Shown here: one piece after another, positions 11,690-59,177 of the stretch
Layout: every line of letters begins with the position of its first letter
Position numbering within the stretch: the stretch's first letter is position 1
Assembly: GCA_026706345.1 (NCBI GenBank)
Contig: JAPOYX010000237.1
Span: 13,175 to 77,174, forward strand
Origin: Gemmatimonadota bacterium
Lineage (GTDB): Bacteria; JAAXHH01
DNA length: 64,000 bases
Reading direction: 5' to 3'
Made by a program: the position numbers and the translations under genes
Notes under the pieces: model-generated
The model's input: the letters and a program-made list of their open reading frames with translations, nothing else
Databases searched by the model: none
Told to the model about the DNA's origin: nothing

Positions 11690-12532
11690 ATGCGAGACAC
11701 CATACGGATCGCCGGCGCGCAGATGGACTTGAAACTCGCCGAGGCCGAGCAGAACCTGACCAAGGTATTCGACGCCATGCAGACCGCCTCCCGGGAAGGC
11801 GCGGACCTGGTCGTGTTTCCGGAGTGCGCGTTGACCGGCTACTGTTTTTACGACCTGGACGAAGCCCGGGCGTGCGCACAACCCGTTCCCGGCCCTTTCA
11901 CGGAACGCCTCGAACGCCAGTGCCGGGAACTCGACATCCATGTCATCATCGGCCTGCTGGAGGCCGATGGGTCAAGTATATATAATTCGGCGGCCTTCAT
12001 CGCCCCCAACGGACTGATCGGGCACTACCGCAAGATCCACCTCCCCTATCTCGGCATCGACCGTTTCCTGTCCCCCGGCGACCGCCCCTTTCGCGTGTAC
12101 GACTCCGAGGTCGGCCAGATCGGGTTGAACATCTGTTACGACGCGGCGTTTCCCGAGAGCTCCCGGGTGATGATGCTCCATGACGCGGAGCTGATCGCCC
12201 TGCCCACCAACTGGCCGGTCGGCGCCGACTGCAACACGGAATTCGTCATAAACACCCGCGCCTTCGAGAACCGCGTCAACTATATCGCCGTGAACCGCGT
12301 CGGCCGGGAAAGGGGAACCAATTTCATCGGCCAGAGCAAAATCGTCGATTTCACCGGACGAACCCTGGCGGAAGGCGACCGGTCCCGGGAGGAAATCATC
12401 TATGCCGACGTGGACCTCGCGGGCGCCCGGGAGAAGCACATCGTAAACGTGCCCAGGGCCTATGAACTCGACCGCCTGGAAGACCGCCGTGTGGAGTTCT
12501 ATGGTCCCATTGTCGAGGGAGAAAGTCCTTGA
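11690..12532 (+). CDS. carbon-nitrogen hydrolase family protein (nitrilase/amidase-like)
   Basis: 280 aa; catalytic E (VVFPE), K (RKIHL) and C (NICYD) triad context of the CN-hydrolase family. Confidence 0.85.
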   Translation: MRDTIRIAGAQMDLKLAEAEQNLTKVFDAMQTASREGADLVVFPECALTGYCFYDLDEARACAQPVPGPFTERLERQCRELDIHVIIGLLEADGSSIYNSAAFIAPNGLIGHYRKIHLPYLGIDRFLSPGDRPFRVYDSEVGQIGLNICYDAAFPESSRVMMLHDAELIALPTNWPVGADCNTEFVINTRAFENRVNYIAVNRVGRERGTNFIGQSKIVDFTGRTLAEGDRSREEIIYADVDLAGAREKHIVNVPRAYELDRLEDRRVEFYGPIVEGESP

Positions 12533-12612
12533 CACGACAGCCCCCCGAACCATAGTTTCTGCGGGGTATGAGGCCTGTGTGTATACGAGGTCGCCGTGTA
12601 TGAGGAGGGCAG

Positions 12613-13293
12613 GTGCTGCCTTGCTGGGTTGTCCGGGCCGGCACGATGGAATACGGCGTGGCGCTGTCTCTTCAGCGGAGTCTGCTTGCGGCGCGTCGTT
12701 CCGGCCTGATCGACAATGTGCTCCTGATTCTCGAACACCCCCCCACGTACACGATCGGTCGTAGACTGAGGGCAAGTGATCACCTGCTCTACGGGCAGGA
12801 AACGCTTGAAGCCCGCGGCATCCGGGTCTACGAAACGGATCGCGGAGGAGACATCACCTGCCACGGTCCCGGCCAGTTGGTGGGCTATACCATCTTTGAT
12901 ATCGCGGCGTGGTACCAGGATGTTTACCGGTACCTCCGCGATCTTGAAGCCGTGATGATCGGGCTCCTGGGCGATTTCGGTATCGCCGCCGACCGCCTGG
13001 AGGGGATAACCGGCGTCTGGGTGGAAGACAGGAAGGTCGCCGCGCTGGGCATACGGGTCAGCCGGTGGATCGCCATGCACGGGTTTTCCCTGAACGTGCA
13101 TCCCGACCTCACCCTGTACGAGGGAATCGTCCCCTGCGGCATCGCCGACCGAGAGGTCACTTCGATCGAGCGGATTCTCGGCCGGCCGGTTGCTATGGAA
13201 GAAGTGGAGACGGGCCTTCTCCATCACCTGGGCGAAGTGTTTGAAATGTCCTTCGAGGAGATGACCCTGGCCGAGTTGCAACAGCGCATATGA
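12613..13293 (+). CDS. lipB: lipoyl(octanoyl) transferase
   Basis: 226 aa; GRR...E...RGGDITCHGPGQLVGY and KVAALGIRVSRW...HGFSLNV are LipB signatures. The start may instead be the internal Met 33 nt downstream. Confidence 0.85.
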   Translation: MLPCWVVRAGTMEYGVALSLQRSLLAARRSGLIDNVLLILEHPPTYTIGRRLRASDHLLYGQETLEARGIRVYETDRGGDITCHGPGQLVGYTIFDIAAWYQDVYRYLRDLEAVMIGLLGDFGIAADRLEGITGVWVEDRKVAALGIRVSRWIAMHGFSLNVHPDLTLYEGIVPCGIADREVTSIERILGRPVAMEEVETGLLHHLGEVFEMSFEEMTLAELQQRI

Positions 13294-13335
13294 CGAATAT
13301 GACACCAGCATGCCACACCGCACCCAGGAGGCGCC

Positions 13336-14361
13336 ATGAACGTTGAGACCGCCCCCGCCCTGTCAGACCCCGACCTTAACGAGTCCGACCTCGACGATCT
13401 CGGCCTCGGCCGGGACGACTACCGGATCCTGTATCATACCATGCGTCTTCAGCGAGAGTTCGAAGAGCGCGTGTACCGCCTATTTCGCCAGGGCAGACTC
13501 GTCGGCGCGGCCTACGCGGGCGCGGGCCACGAGGCCATCGCCGCGGGAAGCGCTTACGCGCTGGGGGACGCGGACATCCTCGTCCCCATGCACCGGGTGA
13601 TCGGCGCCCATTTCCTCCGGGGCCATACCGCGCGCGACATGATGTGCCAGTACCTCGGCCGGGCCAACGGACCGACGGCCGGCAAAGACGGCAACATGCA
13701 CTGCGGCAACTGGGACCACCATATCGTCGGGATGATCAGCCACCTCGGCGCGAACATTCCGGTGGCGGCGGGCGTAGCCCTGGCCGGCAAGATCCGCGGC
13801 AACGGAGCGGTCTCCCTGACCTACATCGGAGAGGGCGGCTCAAGCATCGGCGATTTTCACGAAGGACTCAACTTCGCGGCCGTGCACAAGCTGCCCATGG
13901 TGCTGATCGTGGAGAACAACAAGTTCGCCTACTCCACGCCGACCCGGTTCGAGTACGCCTGCGAAAACATCGTGGACCGGGCGCAGGGTTACGGCATAGC
14001 GGGGGCTTTGATCGACGGCACGGACGTGCGCGCCGTTTACAAGGCGACGCGGGACGCCGTGGATCTGGCCCGGGAAGGCGGCGGTCCGACGCTGATCGAA
14101 GCGCGCTGTACCCGGCTGCTGGGACACGCCCAGCACGACGATGCCTTCTACGTCCCGAAGGAGATCATGGAGGACGGGTGGAACAACGATCCGGTCGTGA
14201 AGAGTGAAAGCCTGCTGCAGGAGCGGAAGTACTTCACCCGCGACGAGCTCGACGAGATCAAGGAAGAGGTCAAGGGCATTGTGGACGACGCGGTGGATTA
14301 CGCGGAACAGAGCCCCCTGCCCGAACCCGAAGAAGCGCTTGAAGGCGTCTACGCGGACTGA
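13336..14361 (+). CDS. 2-oxoacid (pyruvate/branched-chain) dehydrogenase E1 component alpha subunit
   Basis: 341 aa; TPP-binding GEGGSSIGDFHEGLNFAAVHKLPMVLIVENNKFAYSTP motif. Confidence 0.9.
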   Translation: MNVETAPALSDPDLNESDLDDLGLGRDDYRILYHTMRLQREFEERVYRLFRQGRLVGAAYAGAGHEAIAAGSAYALGDADILVPMHRVIGAHFLRGHTARDMMCQYLGRANGPTAGKDGNMHCGNWDHHIVGMISHLGANIPVAAGVALAGKIRGNGAVSLTYIGEGGSSIGDFHEGLNFAAVHKLPMVLIVENNKFAYSTPTRFEYACENIVDRAQGYGIAGALIDGTDVRAVYKATRDAVDLAREGGGPTLIEARCTRLLGHAQHDDAFYVPKEIMEDGWNNDPVVKSESLLQERKYFTRDELDEIKEEVKGIVDDAVDYAEQSPLPEPEEALEGVYAD

Positions 14362-22463: not shown

Positions 22464-23438
22464 GTGAGCACCGATTCCGTCGGCTTCGGCGTGATAGGGC
22501 TTGGTATGGGCGCCGTACGCGCCCGTTTCATTCATGAGACGGAAGGCGCAAGACTCGTGGCGGTCGCCGAACTCGACGAAGAACGGGGCCGGAAAGCCGC
22601 GGATGAATACGGGATCGACTGGTACCGGGACTACCGGCGCCTCCTCGACCGGGACGATATCGACGTCATCACCGTGATGACGCCCAGCGGCACCCATGCG
22701 GACTTTGCCATCGCGGCATCGGAGGCGGGCAAGCATGTCATCACCACCAAGCCCGTGGAGGTCAATCTGGAACGGGCGGACCGGATGATCGACGCCTGCC
22801 GCGAGGCGGGCGTGATCCTGGCCGTCGATTTCGAGGCGCGGTACATGGCCGACAACGTCCGCGTCAAGCAGGCCGTGGACGAAGGCCGCCTGGGCAGGAT
22901 GATCCTGGGCGAAGTGCGTCTGAAGTGGTTCCGGAACGACGCCTACTACGAAGGCTGGCACGGCACTTGGGCACTGGACGGCGGCGGATCGCTGATCAAC
23001 CAGTCCGTGCACCAGATAGATCTCCTGGTCTGGTTCATGGGTGCGCCGGAATCTGTCCAGGGCCAGATCGGGGTGTTCAACCACCACATCGAATCCGAAG
23101 ACCTCGGCATGGCCATGATCAAATTCGGGAGCGGTGCGGTGGGAACCATTCTCGGGACGACGACCTGCCCCGTCACCATCCCCGCCGGCGTGGAACTCCA
23201 CGGCACGGAAGGTCTGGTCATTACGGCCGGGAACAAGGTCGCTACCTGGCATATCCCGGAAGAATCGATCGATGACCCCTTCGAGTACGAGGGCCCCCGC
23301 AACGTGATCGAGGACATGGTCCGGCTGGTCCGCCACGGCGGAACTCCCCGCATAACGGGCGAGGAAGCCAAGAAGTCCCTCGCGCTGATCCTGGCCGTCT
23401 ACGAATCGTCGAAGACGGGAAAGTCCGTAACCCCGTAA
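22464..23438 (+). CDS. Gfo/Idh/MocA family oxidoreductase
   Basis: Starts at GTG (VSTDSVGFGVIGLGMGA... Rossmann) and has the EKP-like VITTKPVEVN motif. The upstream in-frame ATG at 22431 is the alternative start. Confidence 0.85.
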   Translation: MSTDSVGFGVIGLGMGAVRARFIHETEGARLVAVAELDEERGRKAADEYGIDWYRDYRRLLDRDDIDVITVMTPSGTHADFAIAASEAGKHVITTKPVEVNLERADRMIDACREAGVILAVDFEARYMADNVRVKQAVDEGRLGRMILGEVRLKWFRNDAYYEGWHGTWALDGGGSLINQSVHQIDLLVWFMGAPESVQGQIGVFNHHIESEDLGMAMIKFGSGAVGTILGTTTCPVTIPAGVELHGTEGLVITAGNKVATWHIPEESIDDPFEYEGPRNVIEDMVRLVRHGGTPRITGEEAKKSLALILAVYESSKTGKSVTP

Positions 23439-30951: not shown

Positions 30952-31983
30952 CTACAGGGGCAGGGAAATGGCCTTGCCTTCGGCCATGCTGCGGTTCACG
31001 GCCTCGGTGAACTCCATGTACTTGATCCCGACGTCGAAAGGCGTATGGGACACTTTTTCCAACCCTCGGATGGCGTTGACAAACTCCTCTTCCACCCGCC
31101 ATTCTCCGTGGTCCTCGGGCCGGATCTCGATTTCGGACAGGGCGTCGTCGCCCCGGCGGGCTCCGTAAAGCTTGCTGTCGCCCATGCGGATCGTGCCCTC
31201 GCTTCCATAGATCGTGGCTTCGCTTTCGTTGGCCAGGCCCTGGACGGTCGAAATCTTGATATAGGCCGACGCGCCGCAGATCATGTCCATCACGATGTCG
31301 ACGTGCTCCGGCACCCGTATGGCGCGCATCACGCCTGTATCGGCGTCTCTGCGCATTCTCGTGAAGGTCTTGCCCTGGGCGAAAACCGAAAGCGGATCCC
31401 CGACCCAGCGTCGCATGGCCTCGTACCAGATGCCCATGGTCATGATGTTCATCCCGCTGTAGTCTGTGTTCTGCCGCCAGTGCATGGGGCCGTCGCGGTC
31501 GATGAAGTCGCTGCCGGAGGAGCGGAGTTCTACGCTGAGTATGTCGCCCACGAATCCTTCTGCGATCAGCCGCTGAATGGTCTTGTCGGCCCACAGCGTC
31601 ATGGGCGACGGAACGATCTGGGCGACGAGGTCGGGATTGCCCTGCGCGGCGTCGTGCATGAGCAGGGCCTCTTCGTGGTTCATGGCCATGCGCGCCTCGC
31701 ACAGGATGTGCTTGCCGTTCGCCAGGGCCGCCAAGCTCGTGGCGCAGTGGAGGTAGGGCCAGGTGCCGACTACGATGGCGTCGGTGTCGTCCGCTTCGAT
31801 CAGCTCGGTCCACGTCTCGTATATGGTCGGGATGCCGAACTGTTTCGCCACGCGCTCCGAGGACGCGCGGCTGCGGTTGCACACGCTGACGATCTCCACT
31901 CCTTCGATGGCCTGGAGCTTCGGTATGTGCATGGTAACGGTATTGGCGCCGGCGCCGACTACGCCTACGCGTATGGTTTCCAT
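30952..31983 (-). CDS. Gfo/Idh/MocA family oxidoreductase
   Basis: Start taken at METIRVGVVGAGANTV (Rossmann motif). Typical ~340-aa length with the EARMAMN region. Confidence 0.8.
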   Translation of the reverse strand: METIRVGVVGAGANTVTMHIPKLQAIEGVEIVSVCNRSRASSERVAKQFGIPTIYETWTELIEADDTDAIVVGTWPYLHCATSLAALANGKHILCEARMAMNHEEALLMHDAAQGNPDLVAQIVPSPMTLWADKTIQRLIAEGFVGDILSVELRSSGSDFIDRDGPMHWRQNTDYSGMNIMTMGIWYEAMRRWVGDPLSVFAQGKTFTRMRRDADTGVMRAIRVPEHVDIVMDMICGASAYIKISTVQGLANESEATIYGSEGTIRMGDSKLYGARRGDDALSEIEIRPEDHGEWRVEEEFVNAIRGLEKVSHTPFDVGIKYMEFTEAVNRSMAEGKAISLPL

Positions 31984-48951: not shown

Positions 48952-50322
48952 ATGGCCATCGACATCACCGTGCCGCAACTGGGTGAATCCATCGTGGAAG
49001 CAACCGTCATCCAATGGTTCAAAAAGGAAGGCGATTCGGTTACGGTGGGCGAGGCGCTCCTGGAACTGGAAACCGAAAAAGTCACGCTCGAGGTAAACGC
49101 CAACGATAGCGGCGTCCTGACGCGCATCGAACGGGCGGCGGGCGAGGACGTCCAAATCGGCGACCTGCTCGGGGTACTCGACGATAGCGCCGCGGCCGAT
49201 GCGACGGAGGCCGGCGCGGACACCCCTGACGCGGAGGCCCCGGATGCGGCGAATGAAGCCGAAAGGCCGGTGGACGATACGGACGAGCCTGTCACGGCAG
49301 TCGCCGGCGACGCGGGTACTGAGGAGCAGCCCGAGGCCCTTTCGGACGACCGGATAACCCCCGTGGCGCGGCGCATGGCGGACGAAGCGGGCATATCCCT
49401 TTCCGGCGTGGAAGGGACGGGGATGGGCGGTAGAATACGCCGGGAGGACGTGGAACGGGCCGTAACGGAACGAAAGGAAAAAGCGGTTGCCGAGACGGCG
49501 GGGCCGGACGCGCCTGCCGAGACATCCGCCGATCCGGTACGGGAGACCGTCGAACCGAAAACGGGTGCCGGGGAAACCATGCGTCCGACCGGAAGCGCCG
49601 CCGGCGCCGGGACGGCCGATGACGAACGGGAGGAGATCGTACCCATGTCCCGGCGGCGTCGCACCATCGCCAGCCGGCTCGTGGAAGCGCAGCAGACCGC
49701 GGCGATGCTGACGACCTTCAACGAGATCGACATGAGCACGGTGATGACGATACGCCGCAGGAACCGGGAGGCCTTCGAGGAACGGCACGGCGTGCGGCTG
49801 GGATTCATGTCCTTTTTCGTCAAGGCCGTGATCGGGGCGCTCAAGGACTTTCCGGAGCTCAACGCCGAAATCCGCGGGGACTCGATCGTCAGGAAACACT
49901 ACTACGACATCGGGATCGCGGTGGGCGCCGAAGACGGGCTCGTGGTACCGGTCCTGCGGGACGCGGACCGTATGTCATTCGCGGAGATCGAGAGCAATAT
50001 CAGACAGTACGCGGCAAAGGCGGGCGAGGGCAAACTGTCGCTGGAGGACCTGCGCGGGGGCACCTTTACGATTACGAACGGCGGGGTTTTCGGTTCGATG
50101 CTGAGCACGCCCATCCTGAACCCTCCGCAGGTGGGCATACTGGGACTCCACCGAATCGACGACCGGCCCGTGGCCGTCGACGGAGAGGTGGTGATCCGGC
50201 CCATGATGTACGTGGCGCTGAGCTACGATCACCGGATCATTGACGGCCGGGAAGCCGTGCAGTTCCTGGGAAAGGTAAAGTCCCTGATCGAAGTGCCCGC
50301 GGCTTTGCTGCTCGAAGTGTGA
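48952..50322 (+). CDS. sucB: dihydrolipoamide succinyltransferase (E2 of 2-oxoglutarate dehydrogenase)
   Basis: 456 aa; lipoyl domain (ETEKVTLEV), Ala/Pro/Glu-rich linker, E3-binding domain, and catalytic SYDHRIIDG. Confidence 0.9.
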
Positions 50323-50360
50323 AGTTCTGACGGAGATTTACCTGATTCCGGGAGGGGCTG

Positions 50361-50792
50361 ATGGCCTGGTGGGTCTGGATTATTGGCGGCGTGTTGCTCT
50401 GTCTGGCCGAGATGGCCACGCCGGGCGCCTTTTACCTGCTGTTCTTCGGCGTCGCGGCGCTCGTAGTCGGCGTGCTGGCCTGGGCGGGCCTGGTGGAGAC
50501 GACCTGGGTTCAGTTTCTCCTGTTTTCGGTCTTTTCCATCGCCTCTCTCGTCCTGTTCCGGCGGACACTGACCGAAAGGCTGAATCCTCAAGAGCCCGCC
50601 ACGAAGATCAACACCCTGGAGGGAGAATCCGGCAGGGCCCTTGAGGACATCCCGGCCAGCGGCACCGGCAAGGTGGAAGTGCGGGGCACGGGCTGGAACG
50701 CCGTGAACAAGGGCGAATCGCTTATCGAAAAGGGACAGGCCTGCGTGGTCGAACGCGTTGAAGGCGTTTCACTCTGGGTAAAGGGCGCGTAA
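50361..50792 (+). CDS. NfeD family membrane protein
   Basis: 143 aa; N-terminal TM helices followed by a C-terminal OB-fold-like soluble domain. Immediately upstream of an SPFH gene. Confidence 0.75.
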   Translation: MAWWVWIIGGVLLCLAEMATPGAFYLLFFGVAALVVGVLAWAGLVETTWVQFLLFSVFSIASLVLFRRTLTERLNPQEPATKINTLEGESGRALEDIPASGTGKVEVRGTGWNAVNKGESLIEKGQACVVERVEGVSLWVKGA

Positions 50793-50860
50793 AAGCCCGG
50801 ATGGTAGCGGGGGTTATGTACGACCTCGCCCGTTTCTAATCGCGCCGGAAGGAACCTGTA

Positions 50861-51826
50861 ATGGAAGGTCTGATAGTAACCATCGTCGTCGCGGTCGCGG
50901 CGATCATATTCCTGAGAAACCTGATCATCGTCGTGCCGCAGCAGGAAGCCCGCGTGATCGAAAGGCTGGGCAAATACAGCAAGACGCTGAACGCCGGTTT
51001 CTACATCCTGTTGCCCTTCGTGGACCGGGTAGCCTACCGGCACACGCTGAAGGAGCAGTCCATCGACATCCCCGAACAGCTCTGCATCACGCGGGACAAC
51101 GTCCAGGTCGGCGTGGACGGTGTACTCTACATGCAGGTGCTGGACGCCGAGCGGGCTTCCTACGGCATAGCCGATTACGACATGGCCATCACGCAACTCG
51201 CCCAGACCACCCTGAGAAGCGAAGTCGGGAAGATCGACCTGGACAAAACCTTCGAAGAGCGGGGCGCCATCAACTTTGCCGTCGTCAGCGAACTGGACAA
51301 GGCGTCCGATCCCTGGGGCGTAAAGGTCCTGCGGTACGAAATCAGAAACATCAATCCGCCCCGGGACGTCCTGGAAGCCATGGAGAAACAGATGCGGGCG
51401 GAGCGCGAAAAACGGGCGGCGATCCTGAATTCGGAGGGGATGCGCGACTCCAACATCAACCAGGCCGAAGGCGAGAAGCAGAAAGTCATCAAGGAATCCG
51501 AGGCCAAGAAGCAGCAGCAGATCAACGAGGCCGAGGGCGAAGCCCAGGCCATCCTCACCGTCGCCAACGCCACGGCCGAGGGCGTCCGCGCCATAGCGGG
51601 CGCCATCAAGTCGGATGGAGGCGACGAGGCCGTGCAGCTGCGGGTGGCCGAGCAGTACATCGAAACCTTCGGCAACCTGGCCAAGTCGGGCAACAGCCTG
51701 ATCATACCCTCCAATCTCAGTGACGTCAGTTCCATCATCGCGTCGGCCATGTCCGTGATCAAGCACGACCGGGCGGCGGACAACGGCGACCGGGCGGCGG
51801 ACAACGGCGACCGGGGACGCGTCTAG
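50861..51826 (+). CDS. SPFH/band-7 (stomatin-like) family protein
   Basis: 321 aa; N-terminal TM helix, SPFH core (ITRDNVQVGVDGVLYMQV...), a coiled-coil region, and a C-terminus ending with the tandem DRAADNG repeat. Confidence 0.85.
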   Translation: MEGLIVTIVVAVAAIIFLRNLIIVVPQQEARVIERLGKYSKTLNAGFYILLPFVDRVAYRHTLKEQSIDIPEQLCITRDNVQVGVDGVLYMQVLDAERASYGIADYDMAITQLAQTTLRSEVGKIDLDKTFEERGAINFAVVSELDKASDPWGVKVLRYEIRNINPPRDVLEAMEKQMRAEREKRAAILNSEGMRDSNINQAEGEKQKVIKESEAKKQQQINEAEGEAQAILTVANATAEGVRAIAGAIKSDGGDEAVQLRVAEQYIETFGNLAKSGNSLIIPSNLSDVSSIIASAMSVIKHDRAADNGDRAADNGDRGRV

Positions 51827-51966
51827 CTTACGACCACACGCGGTCCGGCCAAGTCCGACGGCGCCGGGCTACGTCCGAAGGCGCCGAGCCACGTCGGAAG
51901 GCGCGCGGCTTCGCGTTTGTCGGCCGCGCCATCAACCACTGGAGGACCCCGGAGCGTTTCGATACC

Positions 51967-53160
51967 ATGTCCAACCGACCGAAGATCGCCGCGATCACGA
52001 CCATCTACCACCCCTATGCCCACACCCAGCACATTGTGGACCGCTTCCTGGAGGGATACGGCTGGGCGGGCCGGCACCACCACCCGCCCATGGACCTGGT
52101 ATCCCTGTACGTGGACCAGGTGCGCGAGAACGATCTCAGCAGGGACCGGGCCGCCCGGTTCCCCCAGATGAAGATATACCCCACGGTCGCCGACGCCCTA
52201 ACCCTGGGCGGGGATTCGCTGCAGGTGGACGGCGTCCTCCTGGTGGGCGAGCACGGCGAGTATCCGGCCAACGAGAAGGGGCAGCGGCTCTATCCGCGTT
52301 ACGAACTGTTCCGCGAGATCGTGGAGGTATATGAAAGCAGCGGCCGGTCCGTTCCCATTTTCAATGACAAGCACCTGTCGTGGAACTGGGATTGGGCCAG
52401 GGAGATGTACGACACGTCGCAGCGGCTGGGATTCGCCTTCATGGCGGGGTCGAGCCTGCCGGTGACCTGGCGGACGCCGTCGGTCGACATGCCGCTGCAC
52501 GCCGAGGTGGAAGAGGCCGTATGCGTATGCTACGGCGGGGTCGACAGCTACGACTTCCACGGCCTGGAGACCCTGCAGTGCATGGTCGAGCGGCGAGGCG
52601 GCGGCGAGCCGGGCGTAGCCTGGCTCCACGCCTGGCGCGGCGAGGCCTTCTGGGAAGCCTACCACGACGAAGAGTGGTCCCGCGAGCTATTCGAAGCGGC
52701 ACTCTGTCGCAGTCACACGCTGAAACCCTCCCGCGACGGCTTCAACAACATCTTCCCGACCATCAACGAGATGAAGCGGATGGTGGAAGACCCCGTGGCC
52801 TATACCTACGAGCACCGTGACGGGCTCAGGTGCACCATGATCCTCTTCAACGGACTGGTGGAGGATTTCAATTTCGCGGCGCGCCTCGCGGGCCGGAGCG
52901 AGCCGCTGTCGACGCAGATGTACCTGCCCATGCCGCCCGCGCGCACCTCGCTGGCCAACTTCTTCTCGCCGCAGGTCAACAACGTGGAGCAGATGTTCCT
53001 CACCGGCGAGGCCGCCTATCCCGTCGAGCGGACCCTGCTGACGACCGGCCTGACCGCGGCTGGGGTCGACAGCCTGCACGAGGGACAGGTTCGGTTGGAA
53101 ACGCCCCATCTCGACGTCGCCTACCCGGCGCCCGAAAACTCCACGTTCTGGAGATATTGA
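51967..53160 (+). CDS. uncharacterized protein, tandem paralog A (unknown family)
   Basis: 397 aa. Shares conserved blocks with the next gene: HTQH, EHGxYPxNEKGQxLYPRYExF, AGSSLPVTWR, ERRxGGExGV and RLETP. Confidence 0.6.
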   Translation: MSNRPKIAAITTIYHPYAHTQHIVDRFLEGYGWAGRHHHPPMDLVSLYVDQVRENDLSRDRAARFPQMKIYPTVADALTLGGDSLQVDGVLLVGEHGEYPANEKGQRLYPRYELFREIVEVYESSGRSVPIFNDKHLSWNWDWAREMYDTSQRLGFAFMAGSSLPVTWRTPSVDMPLHAEVEEAVCVCYGGVDSYDFHGLETLQCMVERRGGGEPGVAWLHAWRGEAFWEAYHDEEWSRELFEAALCRSHTLKPSRDGFNNIFPTINEMKRMVEDPVAYTYEHRDGLRCTMILFNGLVEDFNFAARLAGRSEPLSTQMYLPMPPARTSLANFFSPQVNNVEQMFLTGEAAYPVERTLLTTGLTAAGVDSLHEGQVRLETPHLDVAYPAPENSTFWRY

Positions 53161-53164
53161 CATC

Positions 53165-54364
53165 ATGCCCAAACGGCTCGCCGTGATCAGTTCCATCTAC
53201 ACGTATCTGTCCCACACGCAGCATTTCGCGGACCGTTTTCTCGTCGGCTATCCGCGGTCCGGCCGTTGGCACAGGCCGGACGTGGAGGTGGCGTCGCTCT
53301 ACGTCGACCAGCGGCCCGAAGGCGACCAGAGTGTCGGCCGCGCCCGCGAGTTCGGCTTCGAGGTCTACCCCACCATCGCCGAAGCGCTGCGGTGCGGCGG
53401 GGATTCCCTGGCGGTGGACGGTATTCTCATCATCTGCGAACACGGCGACTATCCGAACAACGAGAAGGGGCAGAAACTCTACCCGCGGTACGAGATGTTC
53501 AAGGCCTGTGTCGAGGTGTTCGAGCAGGACGGCCGCGCGGTGCCGGTCTACAACGACAAGAACCTGTCCTACAGCTTCGACAGGGGGCTGGAGATGGTGG
53601 CCGATTCGAAGCGGCTCGGCTTTCCCGTGCTCGCCGGATCGAGTCTGCCGGTGACCTGGCGGCTGCCCGAACTGGAACTCCCGCTGGAATGCGATATCGA
53701 GGAAGCGTTGATGGTGGGTGTCGGCGGTTCGGACGCCATGGATTACCACGCCCTCGAAGCCATGCAGTGCATGATCGAGCGGCGCAGGGGAGGCGAAACG
53801 GGAGTCAGGACGGTGCAGATGATCGTGGGTGACGAAGTCTGGGAAGCGGGCGAGCAGGGACGCTATTCAGTAGAATTGCTGGAATCGGCGCTGTCCCGCT
53901 GCGACAGTCCGAAGGGGCTTACGGAGGAGGACGGCCGTACCCAGGACCTGCTGGGCACGGGAGAGTTGCGCCGTCTCGCCGAGGAGCCTGCCGCGTACTT
54001 CATCGAACACGTGGATGGACTGCAGACCACGCTGCTCATGCTCAACGGCGCCATCGGCGACTACTGTTTCGCCGCCCGTCTGAAGGGCGAACCCGATCCG
54101 AAGTCGACCCAGTTCTTCCTGCCGCCCACCCCGCCGGTCACCTATTCCGCCTGCCTGGTGTCGAGGATCGACGAGATGTTCGAGACCGGCGTGTCTCCGA
54201 TCCCGGTGGAACGGACGCTCACCGTCTGCGGCATCCTCGACCACTGCCTCACGTCGAAGCAGCGGGGCGGCATCCGCCTGGAGACGCCCGATCACCGCGT
54301 GCAGTACCGGGCGCCGGCCCGGCCGCAGCACTGCGGCGCCGCCCAAGACGGATATACTTCCTGA
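53165..54364 (+). CDS. uncharacterized protein, tandem paralog B (unknown family)
   Basis: 399 aa; clear paralog of 51967..53160. The intergenic gap is only 4 bp. Confidence 0.6.
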   Translation: MPKRLAVISSIYTYLSHTQHFADRFLVGYPRSGRWHRPDVEVASLYVDQRPEGDQSVGRAREFGFEVYPTIAEALRCGGDSLAVDGILIICEHGDYPNNEKGQKLYPRYEMFKACVEVFEQDGRAVPVYNDKNLSYSFDRGLEMVADSKRLGFPVLAGSSLPVTWRLPELELPLECDIEEALMVGVGGSDAMDYHALEAMQCMIERRRGGETGVRTVQMIVGDEVWEAGEQGRYSVELLESALSRCDSPKGLTEEDGRTQDLLGTGELRRLAEEPAAYFIEHVDGLQTTLLMLNGAIGDYCFAARLKGEPDPKSTQFFLPPTPPVTYSACLVSRIDEMFETGVSPIPVERTLTVCGILDHCLTSKQRGGIRLETPDHRVQYRAPARPQHCGAAQDGYTS

Positions 54365-54419
54365 ACCGGATCAGCGAAGATCAGATGAACGAGCCTTTCC
54401 GGCTCGCCGTGGGCTCCGC

Positions 54420-55880
54420 TCAGCAGAACCAGGCCTCGGTCAGCCGGGGAACGCGCCGTCGTTTGACCGGGAGGTCTTGAAAAGGCCGCTCCGTGGGCGC
54501 CTCGACGCCCGCCGCTTCCGCCGCCAGGCACCTGATCCGGTGGAACAAACTTCGATTGTCTCTTTCCTCTCCCGAGGCGTCCGCCTCCTCCACGAGACGG
54601 GAAACCCGTTGATGCAGACGGTCCATGCGCGCATCGCCATGGCGCCACGTGTAGGTGAACCCGGCTTCATCCAGCGCGCCGATCCATGACCGGGTATCCG
54701 GTTCAGCCAGCAGGGCCGACCCCGGCGGTACGAGCAGGCGGATGCTATACTGCACCGGGTCGACGTGGTCGACCAGGTCGTGGACTTCGACGAAATCCAG
54801 CAGATCCAGGTAGTCGTCCAGCGTCGTCCAGGGCGTGAAAGCCACCAGCGAGGGCCGCATGGGAATTTCCGCGTCGCGCAGGACGGCGAGGGCCCGGACG
54901 ATATCGTCTCGTGTGTGTCCTTTCCTGAGGCGCTCCAGCACCACGTCGCTGACCGATTCCACGGCCGATACGACGAAAATGCCGCCCAGATCCCGGGCTT
55001 CGGAGAAAAAGGACGCGTGCCGGAGGATGTGTTCGATCTTGGTGGTGAAGTCGAAGGTGAGGCCGGGGTGGGCGTCGCTCATCCTGCGCAAGATACGCAG
55101 GACGTGGGTGGGGCCGTTCAGGAAATCCGGGTCCCCGAAGGTGATATGCCGGGCCCCCATGCGCACCTGCTGGTCCACGTCGGCGAGCACCACGTCGGCG
55201 GGCACGGCGAAGAACCGGCCGTTGTACACGGGCGTGATCGGGCAGTGCAGACAGGTATGCAGGCAACCGCGCGTGGTCTCGGTGTAGCCGGCGGGAAGCG
55301 ATTCCACGCCGTTGTCCAACTGGGCGTACCGTTTCAGACCGGGCAGCGTATCGCGGTCCGGGACCAACCAGGTCTGGCGGGAGAGATTCGGAGCGGCAGC
55401 CGCACCGCCGGCCGACGCGGGACCTCCGGCTGAAACTGGACCGCCCGCCGATGCGGGACCGCCGGCCTTTGCGGGACCTCCGGCCGCCACTGACGGTTCG
55501 CCACCGCACAACCGGCCGACCAGATCGCAAAGCGGCTGTTCAAACTCTCCGCCGATCACCGAGTCGGCCCCGTGGGACAGGAGATAATCGGCGTTCAGGG
55601 TGGCATAGAGTCCGTAGAAGCAAAGATGCGCGCCGGGGTTGAGTTTCCGGATACGGCGCGACAGGTCCATCCCGACCCGCATCGCCGTGTGCATGGGCAC
55701 CGAGATTCCGATGAAACCGGCCCGGCGGACGATATCCTCCGGGACCGGCTCGATCGCGGCATCGACTACGGCGACGTCATATCCTTCGGACTTCAGGCGG
55801 GCGGCGGGTGAGGCCAGGCTGAAGGGTTGATGGCCCAGTTCATAGCAGGAGATGAGCAGGATATCATCGTCACGCTTCAT
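54420..55880 (-). CDS. B12-binding domain-containing radical SAM protein
   Basis: 486 aa. N-terminal cobalamin-binding Rossmann-like domain and radical SAM CxxxCxxC (TRGCLHTCLHCP). An internal GGPAKAGGPASAGGPVSAGGPASAGG repeat linker sits between the domains. Confidence 0.8.
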   Translation of the reverse strand: MKRDDDILLISCYELGHQPFSLASPAARLKSEGYDVAVVDAAIEPVPEDIVRRAGFIGISVPMHTAMRVGMDLSRRIRKLNPGAHLCFYGLYATLNADYLLSHGADSVIGGEFEQPLCDLVGRLCGGEPSVAAGGPAKAGGPASAGGPVSAGGPASAGGAAAAPNLSRQTWLVPDRDTLPGLKRYAQLDNGVESLPAGYTETTRGCLHTCLHCPITPVYNGRFFAVPADVVLADVDQQVRMGARHITFGDPDFLNGPTHVLRILRRMSDAHPGLTFDFTTKIEHILRHASFFSEARDLGGIFVVSAVESVSDVVLERLRKGHTRDDIVRALAVLRDAEIPMRPSLVAFTPWTTLDDYLDLLDFVEVHDLVDHVDPVQYSIRLLVPPGSALLAEPDTRSWIGALDEAGFTYTWRHGDARMDRLHQRVSRLVEEADASGEERDNRSLFHRIRCLAAEAAGVEAPTERPFQDLPVKRRRVPRLTEAWFC

Positions 55881-55913
55881 GATGAAACCACGGGACGGCG
55901 GCGACGACCGGGG

Positions 55914-56189
55914 TTACTTCGTCTGAGGGGGACGGTATCCCGGCGGCATCTCGGCGCCTTCGCCAAAGAAGAACTCTTCCAGGTGCCGGTCGTAGACTTC
56001 CTGGCCCTCGGTCGTGGCGAGATTCAGGCGGTACTCGTTGATGACCATGACCGAATAGTTGATCCACATCTGCCAGGCCTGTTTGGATATGTTATCGTAG
56101 ATGCGCTGGCCGAGTTCGTTGGGGAAGGGGACGAAGTCGAGTCCTTCCAGTTCCTCGTTGAGCTTGGCGCATTGGACCATGCGGGCCAT
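55914..56189 (-). CDS. yggX: Fe(2+)-trafficking / oxidative-damage protection protein YggX
   Basis: 91 aa, the same length as and collinear with E. coli YggX: QCAKLNEELEGLDFVPFPNELGQRIYDNISKQAW ... VINEYRLNL. Confidence 0.9.
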   Translation of the reverse strand: MARMVQCAKLNEELEGLDFVPFPNELGQRIYDNISKQAWQMWINYSVMVINEYRLNLATTEGQEVYDRHLEEFFFGEGAEMPPGYRPPQTK

Positions 56190-56319
56190 GCCGGGCCTCC
56201 TCGTAACGGGCGTAATCTTCGCTGATCATATGCCGGTCGGTATCGCTTGCGTTACAACACAGGCTATATACCGGTCCGCCCATTGTTTGTCAAGTTGGCC
56301 GTGGACGAGACCCGGCATC

Positions 56320-56480
56320 GAAACAAAGCGCCCGGAGATCGAAGCAAGATTCCCGGACATCGATGTGAAGCGTCCGGCATCGATGTGAAGCGTCCGGCAT
56401 CGATGTGAAGCGTCCGTCTCGAAGCGAAGCGCCCGGACCTCGCGGCAAAAACTCCCCGTCTCGAAGCGAAACTCCTGGAC
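56320..56480. repeat. tandem repeat region upstream of yggX: 3 copies of 20-bp CATCGATGTGAAGCGTCCGG plus related GTCTCGAAGCGAA units
   Basis: Read directly at 56359-56418 (three head-to-tail copies; the last has 1 mismatch), with flanking related motifs. Confidence 0.6.
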
Positions 56481-56533
56481 GAGGGCCCCGCCCAACCCGT
56501 CCGGGGGCCTCCGATGTTTCGCCGCATTCCGCT

Positions 56534-58054
56534 TCAGTCCTCGATGTATTGCGACAGCACCGCGTCCATGGCGGCATTGCCGGTGGGATAGCGTCCTTCC
56601 GGGACACTGAGCCCATGGTCGAGCAGTAGACCGAGCGCGTCGGGGTATTCGCCTTTGTCCCGATTCCACTGGCAGTGAATCACGGTGTGAATCGGGTCCT
56701 GGAAGTATCCGCCGATGGGTTCGGTGGAGACGTCCCGCCGGAGAAGGAAATCGACCATTTCGGGATTTCCCTTGCACAGGGCCCAGTAGAGGGGCGTGGC
56801 ATCCATCCAGCCCCGGGCGTCCACCGGCCAGCCGAGTTCCGCCATGAGACGAACCGCGTCCCAGTTGTCCACCTGGCCCACGTGACTGATCAGGGTCCGG
56901 TCATCGTCCGTCAAGGCGGCCAGGTAACGATCTTTCAGGTGCTCCACGGTTTCGAGATCCGCATTGCCGCACGCGACTACGAAGCGATCGTATTCGGACA
57001 TGGGGGACGGCACCGCGCCATGCCGTTGGAGGAGCGCTGCGACCTCACCGCGGCCGAGCCGGAGGGCGAAGTCGAGCGGCGTGTACCCGACGATCCCGAG
57101 CGCTGTGCTCTTTCCGGTAGACGTGCGGGCGTTGGGGTCCGCCCCGGCTTCCAGGAGCGCGCCGATCACTAAGGCCGAGTTGTTTCTCTTTACGGCCCAG
57201 TGCAGGGACGTTTCCCGGTCGGCGGGATGGATGGCGTTGGGATCGGCGCCCTGGTCGAGAAACCACCTGATGCCCTCGGTCCAGTTCATGTCCATGACAT
57301 GCTTGATGCAATAGGAAACAGCTTCTGCGTCCAGCCCGTTCGCCGCGACCGTCTCCAGCAGTTCGAGATTGAACTTCTCGCAGGCGTGGTACAGGGACTC
57401 GTTGTCGTTGGGATTGGCGCCCGCGTCCACCAGCACCCGGGCCGCCGGCACGCAGTTGTTTTCCACGCATCCGTAGAGGGCCGACTCCTTCCAGTCGTCA
57501 TCGTTCACCCAGTAGCTGTCCGGATCGGCGCCATGCCGCAGCAGGAGTTCCAGAACGCGGACCATGGCGTCGGCACGCTCGGAAAGAAAGCAGGACCACG
57601 CCGCGTGGAGGATCGGGGTCCAGTCTTTCGGGCCGCCCTTCGTCGTGGCCGCGGCGGGATCGGTCTCCAGGATGTCTGTGACGGCATCCACGTCCCCGGC
57701 TGCGCAGGCGGCGTGGATATCTCCCCGGGTAAGTTCCGGCGCCGATTCGAGCACGGCCTCGGCGCGTTTCCGGTCGCCCCATACCCAGGCGGAGGACAGA
57801 AACATCTCCCGCTTTTCATCCAGGTTCCTTGCGACGATTTCGAAGTGGATCTTGAGATGGGGCCAGGACCCGAACCCATTTTCCCTGGCGATGGCGTGAT
57901 AGGCGTCCGACAGCACGAGACGGCCACGCCGCGCTCCGGTGGCCGACCGGATTCTGTCGACGGCATGTTCTTCGCCGCTGCGCGCAGATTTCAGAAGCGT
58001 TTTCGCCTGCAGCCTGAGATGGCGTATATCGGGATTGGAAGGCAGGGAGGACAT
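56534..58054 (-). CDS. ankyrin repeat domain protein (paralog 1)
   Basis: 506 aa; multiple ANK consensus segments (LHxAxxxxxxxxVxxLLxxGADPN), an N-terminal RHLRLQAKTLLK...ENGFGSWPHLK motif, and a strong AAGGAGG Shine-Dalgarno sequence. Confidence 0.8.
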   Translation of the reverse strand: MSSLPSNPDIRHLRLQAKTLLKSARSGEEHAVDRIRSATGARRGRLVLSDAYHAIARENGFGSWPHLKIHFEIVARNLDEKREMFLSSAWVWGDRKRAEAVLESAPELTRGDIHAACAAGDVDAVTDILETDPAAATTKGGPKDWTPILHAAWSCFLSERADAMVRVLELLLRHGADPDSYWVNDDDWKESALYGCVENNCVPAARVLVDAGANPNDNESLYHACEKFNLELLETVAANGLDAEAVSYCIKHVMDMNWTEGIRWFLDQGADPNAIHPADRETSLHWAVKRNNSALVIGALLEAGADPNARTSTGKSTALGIVGYTPLDFALRLGRGEVAALLQRHGAVPSPMSEYDRFVVACGNADLETVEHLKDRYLAALTDDDRTLISHVGQVDNWDAVRLMAELGWPVDARGWMDATPLYWALCKGNPEMVDFLLRRDVSTEPIGGYFQDPIHTVIHCQWNRDKGEYPDALGLLLDHGLSVPEGRYPTGNAAMDAVLSQYIED

Positions 58055-58370
58055 GGAACCTCCTTCAGGCGATCATGAGACCGCCGGAACACCCGTGCGT
58101 CCGCCGAACGGGCAAGAAGAAGGTTGCCACGGCAGATGGGAACCGATACAGGTGAACTTGTGTTCTTTCCGCGGACGGGCGGCGTCCTGCACACGCCGAT
58201 TACTGGCAATATACAGGCGCCACAGAAGGCGCGTCAAGAGAAAGCGTCCGGCGGAACGAGGGCGGAAAGATGGCGGACGACAGCTGGACCTCAGTCCGGG
58301 TTGTGGCTCCAGGCCGGCAAGCGCGCCGGCTTGACGCGGGCGCCTTTTCCCGTTACTTATCGCATCAGTC

Positions 58371-59177
58371 ATGATCTATCGGGAATTCGAAACGCACGCC
58401 AGTCTGGCCCCCTACGTTCAACTCGTTTGGATGATGGAGTCCGAGCACGAGGGCGACCACGCGCCGAAATCGCTCATCGTGCCGGACGGCATCGTGGAGA
58501 TCGTTTTACACTACGGCGATCCGTGGATCACGACCGTGGCGGGTGGGAAAAGCATGGTCCAGCCGCGGAGTTTCGCGATCTCCCAGATGCGCAAGTACAT
58601 AGAAATCGAGTCCAACGGAAGGACCGGCTTCGTGTCGGTACGCTTCTATCCGTGGGGCGCCTACCATTTCTTTGACCGACCCGTCAGTGGTTTTCTGGAC
58701 GACACGGTGAGCACCCGGACACTTTGGCCGATGCATTACGAAGATTTGATGGAGAAACTCCGCAAGACACCGGGCGGCGCGGACTTCGCCCGTGTCGTGC
58801 AGGAGTTCCTGCTGGACCGGCTGAAGGAGCACCGCAGGGATGATGGCGCGCTCGACGAAGCGGTCAAGCTCATCCGGTCCGGCGGCGGGCAACTATCCAT
58901 AGAAGAGGTCGGTGAACGCGTCGGTCTATCCAGAAAGCAACTGGAAAGGAAGTTCGCGTCTACGGTCGGCACGACGCCAAAGACCTTTGCCCGAATCAGC
59001 CGGTTCCTGAACATCTGCCATCATCTGGACAGGTACCGGGGAAAGACGCTGACCCATCTGGCCCACGAATGCGGGTATTTCGATCAGGCCCATTTCATCC
59101 GGGAGTTCAACGCCTTTACCGGGTTTACCCCGAAGGCGTTCTTTGAAAAAAACAACGTGAAATTCGCGGAACTTTAG
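58371..59177 (+). CDS. AraC/XylS family transcriptional regulator
   Basis: 268 aa; C-terminal double HTH (EEVGERVGLSRKQLERKF ... LAHECGYFDQAHFIREFNAFTGFTPKAFF). Confidence 0.85.
   Translation: MIYREFETHASLAPYVQLVWMMESEHEGDHAPKSLIVPDGIVEIVLHYGDPWITTVAGGKSMVQPRSFAISQMRKYIEIESNGRTGFVSVRFYPWGAYHFFDRPVSGFLDDTVSTRTLWPMHYEDLMEKLRKTPGGADFARVVQEFLLDRLKEHRRDDGALDEAVKLIRSGGGQLSIEEVGERVGLSRKQLERKFASTVGTTPKTFARISRFLNICHHLDRYRGKTLTHLAHECGYFDQAHFIREFNAFTGFTPKAFFEKNNVKFAEL

Follow-up and report, generated by a model that had tools for sequence, protein, structure and literature searches.

Two adjacent genes in the 64,000-nucleotide stretch of DNA that we analysed (hereafter the window), here called A and B, most likely specify the partner subunits of a single, obligately heteromeric protein, which is found widely among uncultured bacteria; in the window, where the two proteins are unfused, they would likewise assemble with each other. 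On balance, we lean towards the view that they form a cytoplasmic, carbohydrate-type oxidoreductase-like complex, which acts with a noncanonically held nicotinamide cofactor and is uncoupled from the neighbouring genes encoding a radical SAM protein (rSAM) and YggX.

The A/B pair and its distribution

Gene A (51967..53160, plus strand) and gene B (53165..54364, plus strand) are ORFs of 397 and 399 aa, respectively, and are located where a previous sequence-only reading had placed them, 4 bp apart. That reading had considered them paralogs, which is confirmed by BLASTP (48% identity over 386 aa, E = 8e-129); the blocks it had quoted, HTQH, EHG-YP-NEKGQ-LYPRYE-F, AGSSLPVTWR, ERR-GGE-GV and RLETP, are all present in the alignment. 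At the A/B junction (53150..53167, plus strand), as read from the sequence, a GGAG motif is located at 53150-53153, within the 3' end of A and 11 nt ahead of the ATG of B, and the TGA stop codon of A (53158-53160) is separated by a 4-nt spacer (53161-53164) from the start codon of B (53165-53167). This layout, with GGAG inside A and such a short spacer, suggests that translation of B may be coupled to that of A. No signal peptide was found in the A or B protein of the window, and A is of a cytoplasmic type whose domain begins at about residue 4.

Of the 89 loci, which span at least six phyla (the taxa being Latescibacterota, Poribacteria, Gemmatimonadota, Acidobacteriota, Chloroflexota and Handelsmanbacteria), 87 carry a B-type gene directly downstream of the A-type gene and in the same orientation; in the remaining two, the contig edge is reached before a B gene becomes visible. 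Neither A without B nor B without A was encountered in any of the 87 informative loci. The A orthologs of the 89 loci are 70-96% identical, and the B-type orthologs 65-96%. Across phyla, the orthologs of each type are 65-77% identical, compared with 48% between A and B, which implies that the duplication is older than the spread of the pair. Hence, the local tandem duplication proposed earlier does not hold: the duplication is ancient, and A-then-B has been inherited as a unit over at least six phyla. In addition, natural A-B fusions form more than 80 distinct clusters (805-850 aa, 56-84% identity), and one of them, modelled as a single chain, gave a compact body (pLDDT 90.8, pTM 0.90) with disorder limited to the linker. 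A and B are also better conserved than sucA and sucB of the same loci; in locus L008, for example, the identities are 83% for A and 79% for B, versus 68% for sucA and 62% for sucB. The two types have 89 invariant positions in common and differ by 25 fixed, reciprocal differences.

These data bear on the possibility that A and B are redundant recent paralogs that arose by local tandem duplication, each functioning alone as a homo-oligomer and with overlapping functions. The genes are indeed adjacent, in tandem and 48% identical, and canonical Gfo/Idh/MocA enzymes, whose fold A and B are predicted to share (see below), are usually homo-oligomers. However, this possibility is contradicted by the ancient divergence, the obligate pairing, the reciprocally fixed differences and the widespread fusions in fixed order, and we consider it very improbable.

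Fold, conserved residues and genomic context

A and B have no matches in Pfam, NCBIfam, PADLOC or PHROGs, a PDB sequence search with the single protein gave no match, and every source labels them 'hypothetical protein'. Thus, the description of A and B as members of an unrecognised family is right at the sequence level; it is not right in the sense of a family without relatives, since by fold they appear to be a highly diverged branch of the Gfo/Idh/MocA superfamily. Structure prediction and profile searches of the paralogs led to this fold and to no named family. The AlphaFold models are confident (pLDDT 88-91; for the AF2 model of A, pLDDT 88.3 and pTM 0.89), and predict that each protein has the two-domain Gfo/Idh/MocA fold, composed of an N-terminal Rossmann-type domain and a C-terminal alpha/beta sheet domain. 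Comparison of the A model with the PDB by Foldseek resulted in 304 matches with E <= 1e-3 (best E = 1e-12), of which the best 50 are Gfo/Idh/MocA-fold proteins (TM 0.5-0.66, 9-14% identity); GenD2, myo-inositol dehydrogenase, GFOR, biliverdin reductase, NAD-dependent sulfoquinovosidases and Gal80 are among the best matches. The link at the sequence level is weak. A and B do not match PF01408 or PF02894, PF01408 being touched by one of 66 family members (E = 0.03), and comparison with a single canonical Gfo/Idh/MocA sequence was not significant. A profile of the diverse family aligned with the Gfo/Idh/MocA protein 6z3b (E = 0.0012), and YjhC (6o15), 5uhw and 3ezy aligned on the same segment; the profile alignment pairs VPVFxDKHLS...mAGS of A/B with the canonical VFcEKPia...mAGh. 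Global hhalign against canonical members was co-linear (E = 2e-4, probability 21%).

About 20 charged or polar residues, catalytic-type Lys and His among them, are near-invariant in 150 diverse representatives. K135 (93%), D134 (90%), H198 (89%), E201 (93%) and R210 (99%) also belong to the positions that are invariant in both A and B. The catalytic-type Lys is kept within D134-K135-H136, where canonical enzymes have EKP, and the C-terminal domain contributes a conserved His, H198. The enzyme-like look noted earlier agrees with these many invariant polar residues, although, of the 'conserved His/Glu/Cys', it is His and Glu that, together with Asp, Arg and Lys, make up most of the invariant positions, and Cys is not a strong feature. 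Because no family-invariant polar residue is missing from either protein, both A and B appear to be catalytically competent. Strand 1, on the other hand, is followed not by the Gly-rich dinucleotide loop but by a conserved T12-x-Y14...S18-H19...R26 motif. A GxGxxG/A loop is found in none of the 118 A/B family members, and NAD(P) binding by A and B is therefore something that we infer. In 82%, strand 2 ends in an acidic residue (D50 or E), at the site that contacts the NAD ribose in canonical enzymes.

The relatives provide hints on cofactor and substrate. TAT-like signals are present in 50 of 113 A/B relatives. TAT export is the route of GFOR-type enzymes with bound NADP (PMC8121099), and the frequent TAT signals suggest that these relatives are exported with a bound cofactor. 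Several relatives, however, carry Sec-like instead of TAT signals, which is difficult to reconcile with a cofactor whose insertion has to precede export. Domains fused to A/B relatives include PF06439 (DUF1080, 3-keto-disaccharide hydrolase; two cases), a PQQ-type sugar dehydrogenase, an esterase and cytochrome c, the last of which is an uncommon partner for an enzyme working with NAD(P) alone. Sulfatase, MR_MLE/UxuA sugar-acid dehydratase, aldo/keto reductase or Amidohydro_2 genes are neighbours in 35 of the 89 loci. Sulfatases lie near A-B in 13 loci, and the contexts are marine or sponge-associated carbohydrate and sulfated-glycan ones. There is no universal neighbour family, the commonest being present in 20 of 87 A-B loci, and the neighbours in the lineage of the window (sucAB, nfeD, band7 and yggX) are uninformative on the substrate.

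The adjacent radical SAM selenoprotein and yggX

The sequence-only reading had recognised a yggX gene and a B12-domain radical SAM gene, 33 bp apart (55881-55913), and our searches agree. The first, yggX (55914..56189, minus strand), encodes a 91-aa Fe2+-trafficking / oxidative damage protection protein (PF04362, E = 2.8e-36; NF003817, 125 bits, cutoff 74). The second, rSAM (54381..55880, minus strand), encodes a CUAEP-type radical SAM selenoprotein (NF040546, 669 bits, cutoff 500) with the domains PF02310 (B12-binding) and PF04055 (Radical_SAM). The two do form a pair on the minus strand, but the gene that faces B is rSAM and not yggX, which is located upstream of rSAM. The first ORF call stopped at 54420. 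Codon comparison among 80 homologs indicates that the in-frame UGA at this position (54420..54422, minus strand) is a selenocysteine codon and not a stop: it corresponds to TGA in 60, TGT in 11 and TGC in 9 homologs, and AEPT always comes next. The read-through frame, C-U-AEPTASRKGSFI-stop, gives a true length of 499 aa (Sec counted), and because it continues to 54381, the gap to the convergent B gene shrinks to 16 bp. A SECIS-like stem-loop starts from the UGA (54371..54422, minus strand; MFE -22.9 kcal/mol, z = -1.92); its apical hairpin (54388-54408, loop GGAAA) shows a compensatory G-C to A-U change in L008/L009.

The C-U-A-E-P motif, the in-frame UGA and the alternation of Sec and Cys among homologs are shared with NF040546, the CUAEP/CCAEP-tail radical SAM (seleno)protein. 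Unlike the tail in that description, however, the motif is not terminal, as 12-42 residues follow the Sec/Cys position. ArsL (NF040542) is the next closest, with 313 bits, under the cutoff of 450. The CUAEP protein has been listed as an uncharacterized CU-motif selenoprotein in a 2022 preprint (10.1101/2022.07.06.499078). Recurrent partners of the 80 homologs are Nfu/NifU (38 loci), an ATP-grasp ligase (32) and DUF169 (20), whereas in the lineage of the window rSAM lies beside yggX.

It had been suggested that A, B, rSAM and yggX could constitute one metabolic or modification module. In such a module, rSAM might, for instance, modify a product or subunit of A/B, and YggX might supply iron. The four genes are physically adjacent, the convergent ends are only those 16 bp apart, and the arrangement recurs in L010 and L012 and, with a thioredoxin-like gene added, in L008/L009. 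However, rSAM is missing between B and yggX in L004, L006, L007, L011 (A 96% identical) and L013, and is absent from all of the approximately 76 A-B loci outside this lineage; altogether it is found in only 4 of the 89. Conversely, among the 80 rSAM homologs elsewhere, A/B is nearby in one and yggX in four, and yggX is a neighbour of A-B in no lineage other than that of the window. Moreover, A/B and rSAM are convergent, making a shared transcript impossible. Synteny is thus lost even in close relatives, which refutes a shared module; we give it hardly any credence. To judge from this distribution, A/B functions independently of its neighbours rSAM and yggX.

Working model and comparison with known systems

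In the model that we favour, an ancient duplication would have given rise to the A and B subunits, encoded in the order A then B and frequently fused elsewhere. The cytoplasmic complex would bind a sugar or sugar derivative in the cleft between the two domains, the geometry of this cleft and of the A/B interface being putative. Lys/His acid-base residues would perform the chemistry, and a nicotinamide, a cofactor that we regard as uncertain, would be tightly held in a non-canonical way. The reaction may be a dehydrogenation or may be redox-assisted.

It is possible, though somewhat unlikely, that the enzyme kept the same fold and heteromeric state but abandoned NAD(P) for hydrolytic, lyase or isomerase chemistry instead of hydride transfer, with a metal ion or a different ligand bound by the S18-H19...R26 loop plus E95-H96, D134-K135-H136, H198 and E201. 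Such a switch would fit with the complete loss of the Gly-rich loop (kept by none of 118 members) and its replacement by a conserved His-containing motif, the unusually numerous invariant His, Asp and Glu residues, the Sec-like signal peptides of some relatives, which are incompatible with a pre-bound organic cofactor, and the fusions to the hydrolase-type DUF1080 domain and an esterase. Against it stand the conservation of the EKP Lys, the acidic end of strand 2 at the NAD-ribose site, the TAT signals, and the fact that the closest structures (the best listed Foldseek matches) are all NAD(P) proteins or derived from them. The presence among the Foldseek matches of Gal80 (3v2u, 3btv and 2nvw), a yeast protein with the same fold, may indicate instead that A/B is non-catalytic and serves as a ligand sensor or a regulatory/scaffolding complex. 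Although the loss of the canonical cofactor loop and the variable genomic contexts, without a fixed pathway partner, are in line with this idea, we consider it quite improbable: the near-invariant residues include a catalytic-type Lys and His, the periplasmic export and the catalytic-domain and cytochrome c fusions of many relatives are hard to square with a regulator, and no attached DNA-binding or signalling domain was found.

Our preferred reading, a heteromeric oxidoreductase-like complex, places A/B next to several known systems. With members of the Gfo/Idh/MocA superfamily, such as B. subtilis myo-inositol 2-dehydrogenase (3nt2/4l9r), Zymomonas glucose-fructose oxidoreductase (1ofg) and GenD2 (6nor), A/B shares the two-domain architecture and order of elements, the strand-5 Lys (DK for EKP) and the G-S/x...R motif after the next strand, the conserved His on the helix that opens the C-terminal domain, and a dimer assembly, which for A/B is that of the fusion model. 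A/B differs from them by its low identity and lack of their Pfam domains, by T-x-Y...S-H...R in place of the dinucleotide loop, by an added beta-hairpin (31-38) and loop (98-110, YPxNEKGQxLYPR), and by being an obligate heteromer of two paralogs instead of a homo-oligomer. The NAD-dependent glycoside hydrolases (oxidoreductive sulfoquinovosidases 8qc3/8qc6/8zn9) also have the fold in common with A/B (Foldseek E about 1e-11); however, A/B stands no nearer to them than to the other Gfo/Idh/MocA structures, and lacks the canonical NAD loop.

The periplasmic 3-keto-glycoside pathway of Bacteroides (BT2156-BT2159) comprises two adjacent MviM-like dehydrogenases and a DUF1080 3-keto-disaccharide hydrolase; its dehydrogenase carries a TAT signal, and BT2158 and BT2159 are canonical PF01408 proteins (PMC8121099). 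Adjacent paralogous Gfo-fold genes, TAT signals and DUF1080 fusion (in two representatives) are also features of A/B or its relatives. On the other hand, the A/B proteins of the window have no signal peptide, there is no DUF1080 or sugar-phosphate isomerase gene nearby, and there is no sign here of glycoside C3 oxidation by A/B.

Finally, the strongest profile signal among solved structures is to the RgNanOx/YjhC-type enzymes (6z3b, 6z3c and 6o15). It reaches E = 0.0012 for 6z3b/6z3c, and a non-significant E = 0.25 for YjhC 6o15 on the same segment (EKP strand, next helix and next strand). Unlike A/B, these enzymes have the Gly-rich loop, belong to the canonical Pfam families and are homodimeric, and the similarity spans only about 40 residues. 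RgNanOx/YjhC-type enzymes retain their NAD and employ it to transform sugars without net redox change, and by analogy one plausible option for A/B is such a redox-neutral, NAD-retaining chemistry.

The paralogous pair and its flanks

The genes A (51967-53160, plus strand, 397 aa) and B (53165-54364, plus strand, 399 aa) are called in the ORF list, and their pairwise alignment shows 48% identity across 386 residues (E = 8e-129). Every sequence block that the sequence-only reading had quoted as common to both was found in this alignment, which bears out the paralogy and the coordinates that it proposed. Only 4 nt separate the stop codon of A from the start codon of B, and a GGAG sequence lies 11 nt ahead of the latter. 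The opposite strand carries a gene encoding a radical SAM protein with a B12-binding domain (rSAM; called as a 486-aa ORF at 54420-55880, minus strand) and, 33 bp further on, yggX (55914-56189, minus strand, 91 aa). These two minus-strand genes do converge on the A/B pair, as had been described, but the direct neighbour of B is rSAM and not yggX. In general, the observations of the earlier reading were confirmed, and its interpretation as a whole was partly supported.

Several features of the surrounding sequence deserve mention. The spacer between the Band7 gene and A (51827-51966) contains a GC-rich insert, about 110 bp long, in which inverted repeats are present (51854-51912); this insert is missing in two related loci (L010 and L011), where A starts no more than about 10 nt past the Band7 stop codon. 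At its 3' end (51780-51815), the Band7 gene holds an exact, spaced 21-nt duplication (ACAACGGCGACCGGG, present twice). A scan of 50300-58400 for promoters and terminators gave results at chance level. Beside yggX lies a gene for a 506-aa ankyrin-repeat protein (56534-58054, minus strand), which is kept in loci L004 and L010-L012; it is eukaryote-like, in keeping with the coral- and sponge-associated Latescibacterota metagenome-assembled genomes (MAGs) that best match the window.

We examined 89 loci containing an A-type gene, 80 from a one-genome-per-species scan and nine found by looking up exact proteins. In 87 of them, the A-type gene is followed in the same orientation by a B-type gene with 65-96% identity to B, and the other two loci stop at a contig edge. 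The pair is found in Latescibacterota, Poribacteria, Gemmatimonadota, Handelsmanbacteria, Acidobacteriota (Bryobacteraceae and Vicinamibacterales) and Chloroflexota (Caldilineaceae, including Litorilinea aerophila). Across phyla, the orthologs of A keep about 75% identity to it and those of B about 70%, against only 48% between the two paralogs; the duplication is therefore old. In the lineage of the window, A and B are more conserved than sucA, sucB, nfeD and rSAM. The family is under unusually strong constraint, above that on the 2-oxoglutarate dehydrogenase genes of the same loci.

In addition, more than 80 distinct clusters consist of single-chain A-linker-B fusions of 805-850 aa, with named examples from Planctomycetota, Acidobacteriota and Chloroflexota. 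A model of a fusion over 810 residues, built with 34 fusion sequences, has a pLDDT of 90.8 and a pTM of 0.90, with disorder confined to the linker (398-414), values at which the relative placement of both halves is predicted with confidence. A and B have 89 invariant positions in common, including every candidate catalytic residue, together with 25 reciprocally fixed differences. Taken together, the pairing, the fusions, the fusion model, the common invariant residues and the fixed differences argue for an obligate asymmetric heteromer in which both subunits are competent. That A and B are merely redundant paralogs is contradicted by the strict pairing, the fusions and the fixed differences, and the reading of one subunit as an inactive pseudo-enzyme was rejected, since every key residue is invariant in A as well as in B.

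The convergent radical SAM gene

The end of rSAM at 54420, as read in the earlier description, is not its true stop. The apparent stop codon is an in-frame UGA (54420-54422, minus strand) that is read through, so that the true gene spans 54381-55880 (minus strand). The UGA is followed in frame by 12 codons, AEPTASRKGSFI, and then a stop; the window reads WFC-TGA-AEP at this position. The protein matches the NCBIfam model NF040546, "CUAEP/CCAEP-tail radical SAM (seleno)protein", with 669 bits (cutoff 500), a family that is known and uncharacterised (10.1101/2022.07.06.499078). Orthologs retain the read-through peptide down to 61% identity, and their similarity ends where the second stop codon lies. 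Among 80 rSAM homologs, the selenocysteine position is encoded by TGA in 60 and by a Cys codon in 20 (TGT in 11, TGC in 9); AEPT always comes next, followed by 8-38 residues, so that a total of 12-42 residues follow the Sec/Cys position. A SECIS-like hairpin begins at the UGA (54371-54422, minus strand; MFE -22.9 kcal/mol, z = -1.92), and one compensatory change, from a G-C to an A-U pair, is present in loci L008/L009. An Rfam scan of the window gave no family at threshold, and a tRNA scan of the 64 kb found no tRNA gene. The gene model is hereby corrected for a selenoprotein of the kind that ORF finders shorten. Residues 133-164 of the protein (window ~55389-55484, minus strand) form a low-complexity GGPA/GGPV repeat linker, AGGPAKAGGPASAGGPVSAGGPASAGGAAAAP, that separates the B12-binding domain from the radical SAM domain and seems to have been inserted in comparison with the family model.

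The sequence-only reading had proposed that A, B, rSAM and yggX could form a functional module. This idea is refuted by a lack of synteny in related and unrelated genomes, seen in both directions of the comparison; loss of synteny with rSAM in related genomes is the outcome that the reading itself had named as refuting. In the lineage of the window, the conserved order is sucA-sucB-nfeD-band7-A-B, followed by a convergent yggX. The rSAM gene occurs in the window and otherwise just in L010, L012 and L008/L009, and is missing from L004, L006, L007, L013 and L011; among the 89 A-B loci, four carry it. Even among very close relatives, its presence between B and yggX is polymorphic: L010 carries the gene and L011 lacks it, and the A proteins of both are 96% identical to that of the window. 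Outside this lineage, neither rSAM nor yggX was found beside A-B among the 89 loci. Conversely, of 80 metagenomic loci with rSAM homologs (49-80% identity; 66 with at least 400 bp upstream of rSAM), A/B is nearby in one and yggX in four. Their recurrent partners are instead an Nfu/NifU scaffold (38 loci), an ATP-grasp protein of the L-amino-acid-ligase type (32) and DUF169 (20). The adjacency in the window therefore reflects inherited gene order plus a variable insertion, and a false lead is removed.

Two further observations concern the rSAM neighbourhood. In the lineage of the window, Nfu/NifU, ATP-grasp and DUF169 genes are not adjacent to rSAM, and the iron-trafficking gene yggX lies upstream instead. 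In L008/L009, a gene for a 428-aa AhpC/redoxin/thioredoxin-like protein (12477-13763) is inserted between B and rSAM; CU motifs have been noted in some redoxin-domain proteins (Haft preprint).

An unnamed family with a rebuilt cofactor loop

A and B had been described as enzyme-like proteins that could not be assigned to a named family, and this view holds: neither has a match in Pfam, NCBIfam, PADLOC or PHROGs (E <= 0.1), a phmmer search of the PDB with A returned nothing meaningful, and literature searches yielded no description of the family. Nevertheless, the family is very large. Searches at 90% identity of a collection of 5.8 billion proteins gave at least 8000 candidates for A and at least 7963 for B; the matches at 73-94% identity come from MAGs labelled Latescibacteria, Zixibacteria, Gemmatimonadota, Poribacteria and Chloroflexota, and all are labelled "hypothetical" and have no precomputed Pfam domain. 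An exhaustive profile search covering 1.84 billion cluster representatives found 3569 clusters (50% identity) at E <= 1e-3 and 826 at E <= 1e-30. A plasmid tblastn search gave a single Arthrobacter homolog (33% identity) in a poorly annotated, uninformative context. Thus, a very large family is covered by no domain or naming database, and its recognition as a strictly paired, often fused heteromer of the Gfo/Idh/MocA fold (a sugar-dehydrogenase fold superfamily) offers annotators a name and a testable hypothesis.

This fold was recognized from the AlphaFold2 model of A (pLDDT 88.3, pTM 0.89), with which Foldseek found 304 PDB matches at E <= 1e-3. The best 50 of these all have the Gfo/Idh/MocA fold (TM 0.5-0.66, identity 9-14%), and include GenD2, myo-inositol dehydrogenases, glucose-fructose oxidoreductase (GFOR), biliverdin reductase, NAD-dependent sulfoquinovosidases, YjhC and Gal80. 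The links at the level of primary sequence are at the edge of detection. PF01408 was touched by one of 66 diverse members (E = 0.031), and a profile of these 66 members matched the Gfo/Idh/MocA structure 6z3b with E = 0.0012, the same segment being matched in YjhC (6o15), 5uhw and 3ezy; here, VPVF-x-D-K-H-L-S...mAGS of the A/B family is aligned to VFcEKPia...mAGh of the structures. A global hhalign comparison with a profile built from seven canonical sequences of the loci under study was co-linear but only suggestive (E = 2e-4, probability 21%), and hhalign against one canonical sequence was not significant. The window itself contains two canonical Gfo/Idh/MocA genes elsewhere (22506-23435, plus strand; 30955-31983, minus strand), which served as reference sequences in the profile comparison.

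Among 150 representatives, H19 (90%), K135 (93%), H198 (89%) and R210 (99%) are near-invariant, as are D56, E95, H96, D134, E201, E208, E214, D285 and R355. The GxGxxG/A loop between strand 1 and helix A was found in none of 118 representatives. Its place is taken by the pattern A8...T12-x-Y14...S18-H19...R26 (A8 96%, T12 77%, Y14 67%, S18 88%, H19 90%, R/K26 90%). The Lys of the E-K-P motif that follows strand 5 in Gfo/Idh/MocA proteins is aligned with D134-K135-H136, with D for E and H for P (counterparts in 6z3b, 6o15, 5uhw and 3ezy). Candidates for the catalytic His/Asp at the start of the C-terminal domain, in its first helix, are H198 (89%) and D/E193 (92%), H198 lying opposite the canonical His solely in the low-probability global hhalign alignment (21%). 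The conserved-residue pattern and the missing loop together indicate that the family keeps a catalytic-type Lys and a conserved His, but that the dinucleotide-pyrophosphate clamp of its Rossmann domain has been rebuilt. For enzymologists, this is a clean case of a Rossmann-type enzyme with a rebuilt cofactor loop.

Possible function and comparison with known dehydrogenases

Among the 113 representatives whose N-terminus is intact, 50 carry a TAT-like RR signal, 22 have other extensions, several of them Sec-like in look, eight have extra N-terminal domains, and 33 have no extension; the last group resembles A and B of the window, in which the domain begins directly and no twin-arginine signal peptide is present. 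The Pfam model TAT_signal was matched by seven of the 66 diverse members. Among exported relatives, P0283, P0288, P0299, P0318 and P0336 seem to have signals of the Sec type rather than the TAT type, an unexpected trait in proteins that would carry an already bound cofactor. Long representatives include two fusions to the 3-keto-disaccharide hydrolase domain PF06439 (DUF1080; distant relatives P0268 and P0308), two to cytochrome c, one of them together with a PQQ-type glucose/sorbosone dehydrogenase, and one to an esterase. One TAT-type relative and one DUF1080 fusion proved to be stand-alone genes whose contexts give no pathway clue.

The gene neighbourhoods of the cytoplasmic A-B pair contain no universal partner, the commonest family occurring in 20 of 87 loci. 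Sulfatases, enolase-superfamily/UxuA sugar-acid dehydratases, aldo/keto reductases, Amidohydro_2 or Zn-ADH genes are present in 35 of 89 loci, AP_endonuc_2 genes in a few, and PhyH dioxygenases are common around the pair in Poribacteria. TIR and type I restriction genes beside one pair (L003) raised the idea of a role in defence, which was discarded, as PADLOC gave no match and the context is not recurrent.

We favour the view that A/B would be a carbohydrate-type oxidoreductase, or a redox-assisted enzyme, that holds a nicotinamide cofactor tightly, because of the TAT signals, the fused domains, the sugar-type neighbours and a parallel in Bacteroides. In the latter, a DUF1080 3-keto-disaccharide hydrolase works with two adjacent Gfo-type dehydrogenases, one of which is TAT-exported and proposed to hold NAD(P) tightly, like GFOR (PMC8121099; PMC9007349). 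On the other hand, a serious rival is that A/B is a cofactor-switched, metal- or His-dependent enzyme, a reading favoured by the lost Gly loop, the Sec-like signals in relatives and the cytochrome c fusions. The indirect hints on NAD(P)(H) binding point both ways: the TAT signals and the retained Lys speak for it, and the lost Gly loop and the Sec-like signals against it. In its most specific form, the rival holds that the conserved Ser-His...Arg site, into which the dinucleotide loop was rebuilt, may bind a ligand other than NAD(P) together with invariant Glu-His, Asp-Lys-His and His/Glu residues, in an obligate heteromer that would catalyze an undescribed core reaction of carbohydrate metabolism. 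We regard this form as rather unlikely; if true, the cofactor switch would span thousands of clusters in Latescibacterota, Poribacteria, Acidobacteriota, Chloroflexota, Planctomycetota and other phyla. The pair is carried by one cultured organism, Litorilinea aerophila, and experiments are therefore feasible.

The A/B pair differs in its setting from the known 3-keto-glycoside pathway, in which DUF1080 (PF06439) and sugar-phosphate isomerase/epimerase genes are linked; neither is near A/B in the window. With respect to the Gfo/Idh/MocA superfamily, A and B do not match its sequence models PF01408, PF02894 and PF22725 above the gathering score, whereas the model of A has the same two-domain fold, an N-terminal Rossmann-type domain and a C-terminal alpha/beta sheet. 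Within this known fold superfamily, A/B represents a heteromeric variant that is new and very divergent, as well as widespread and strongly conserved.
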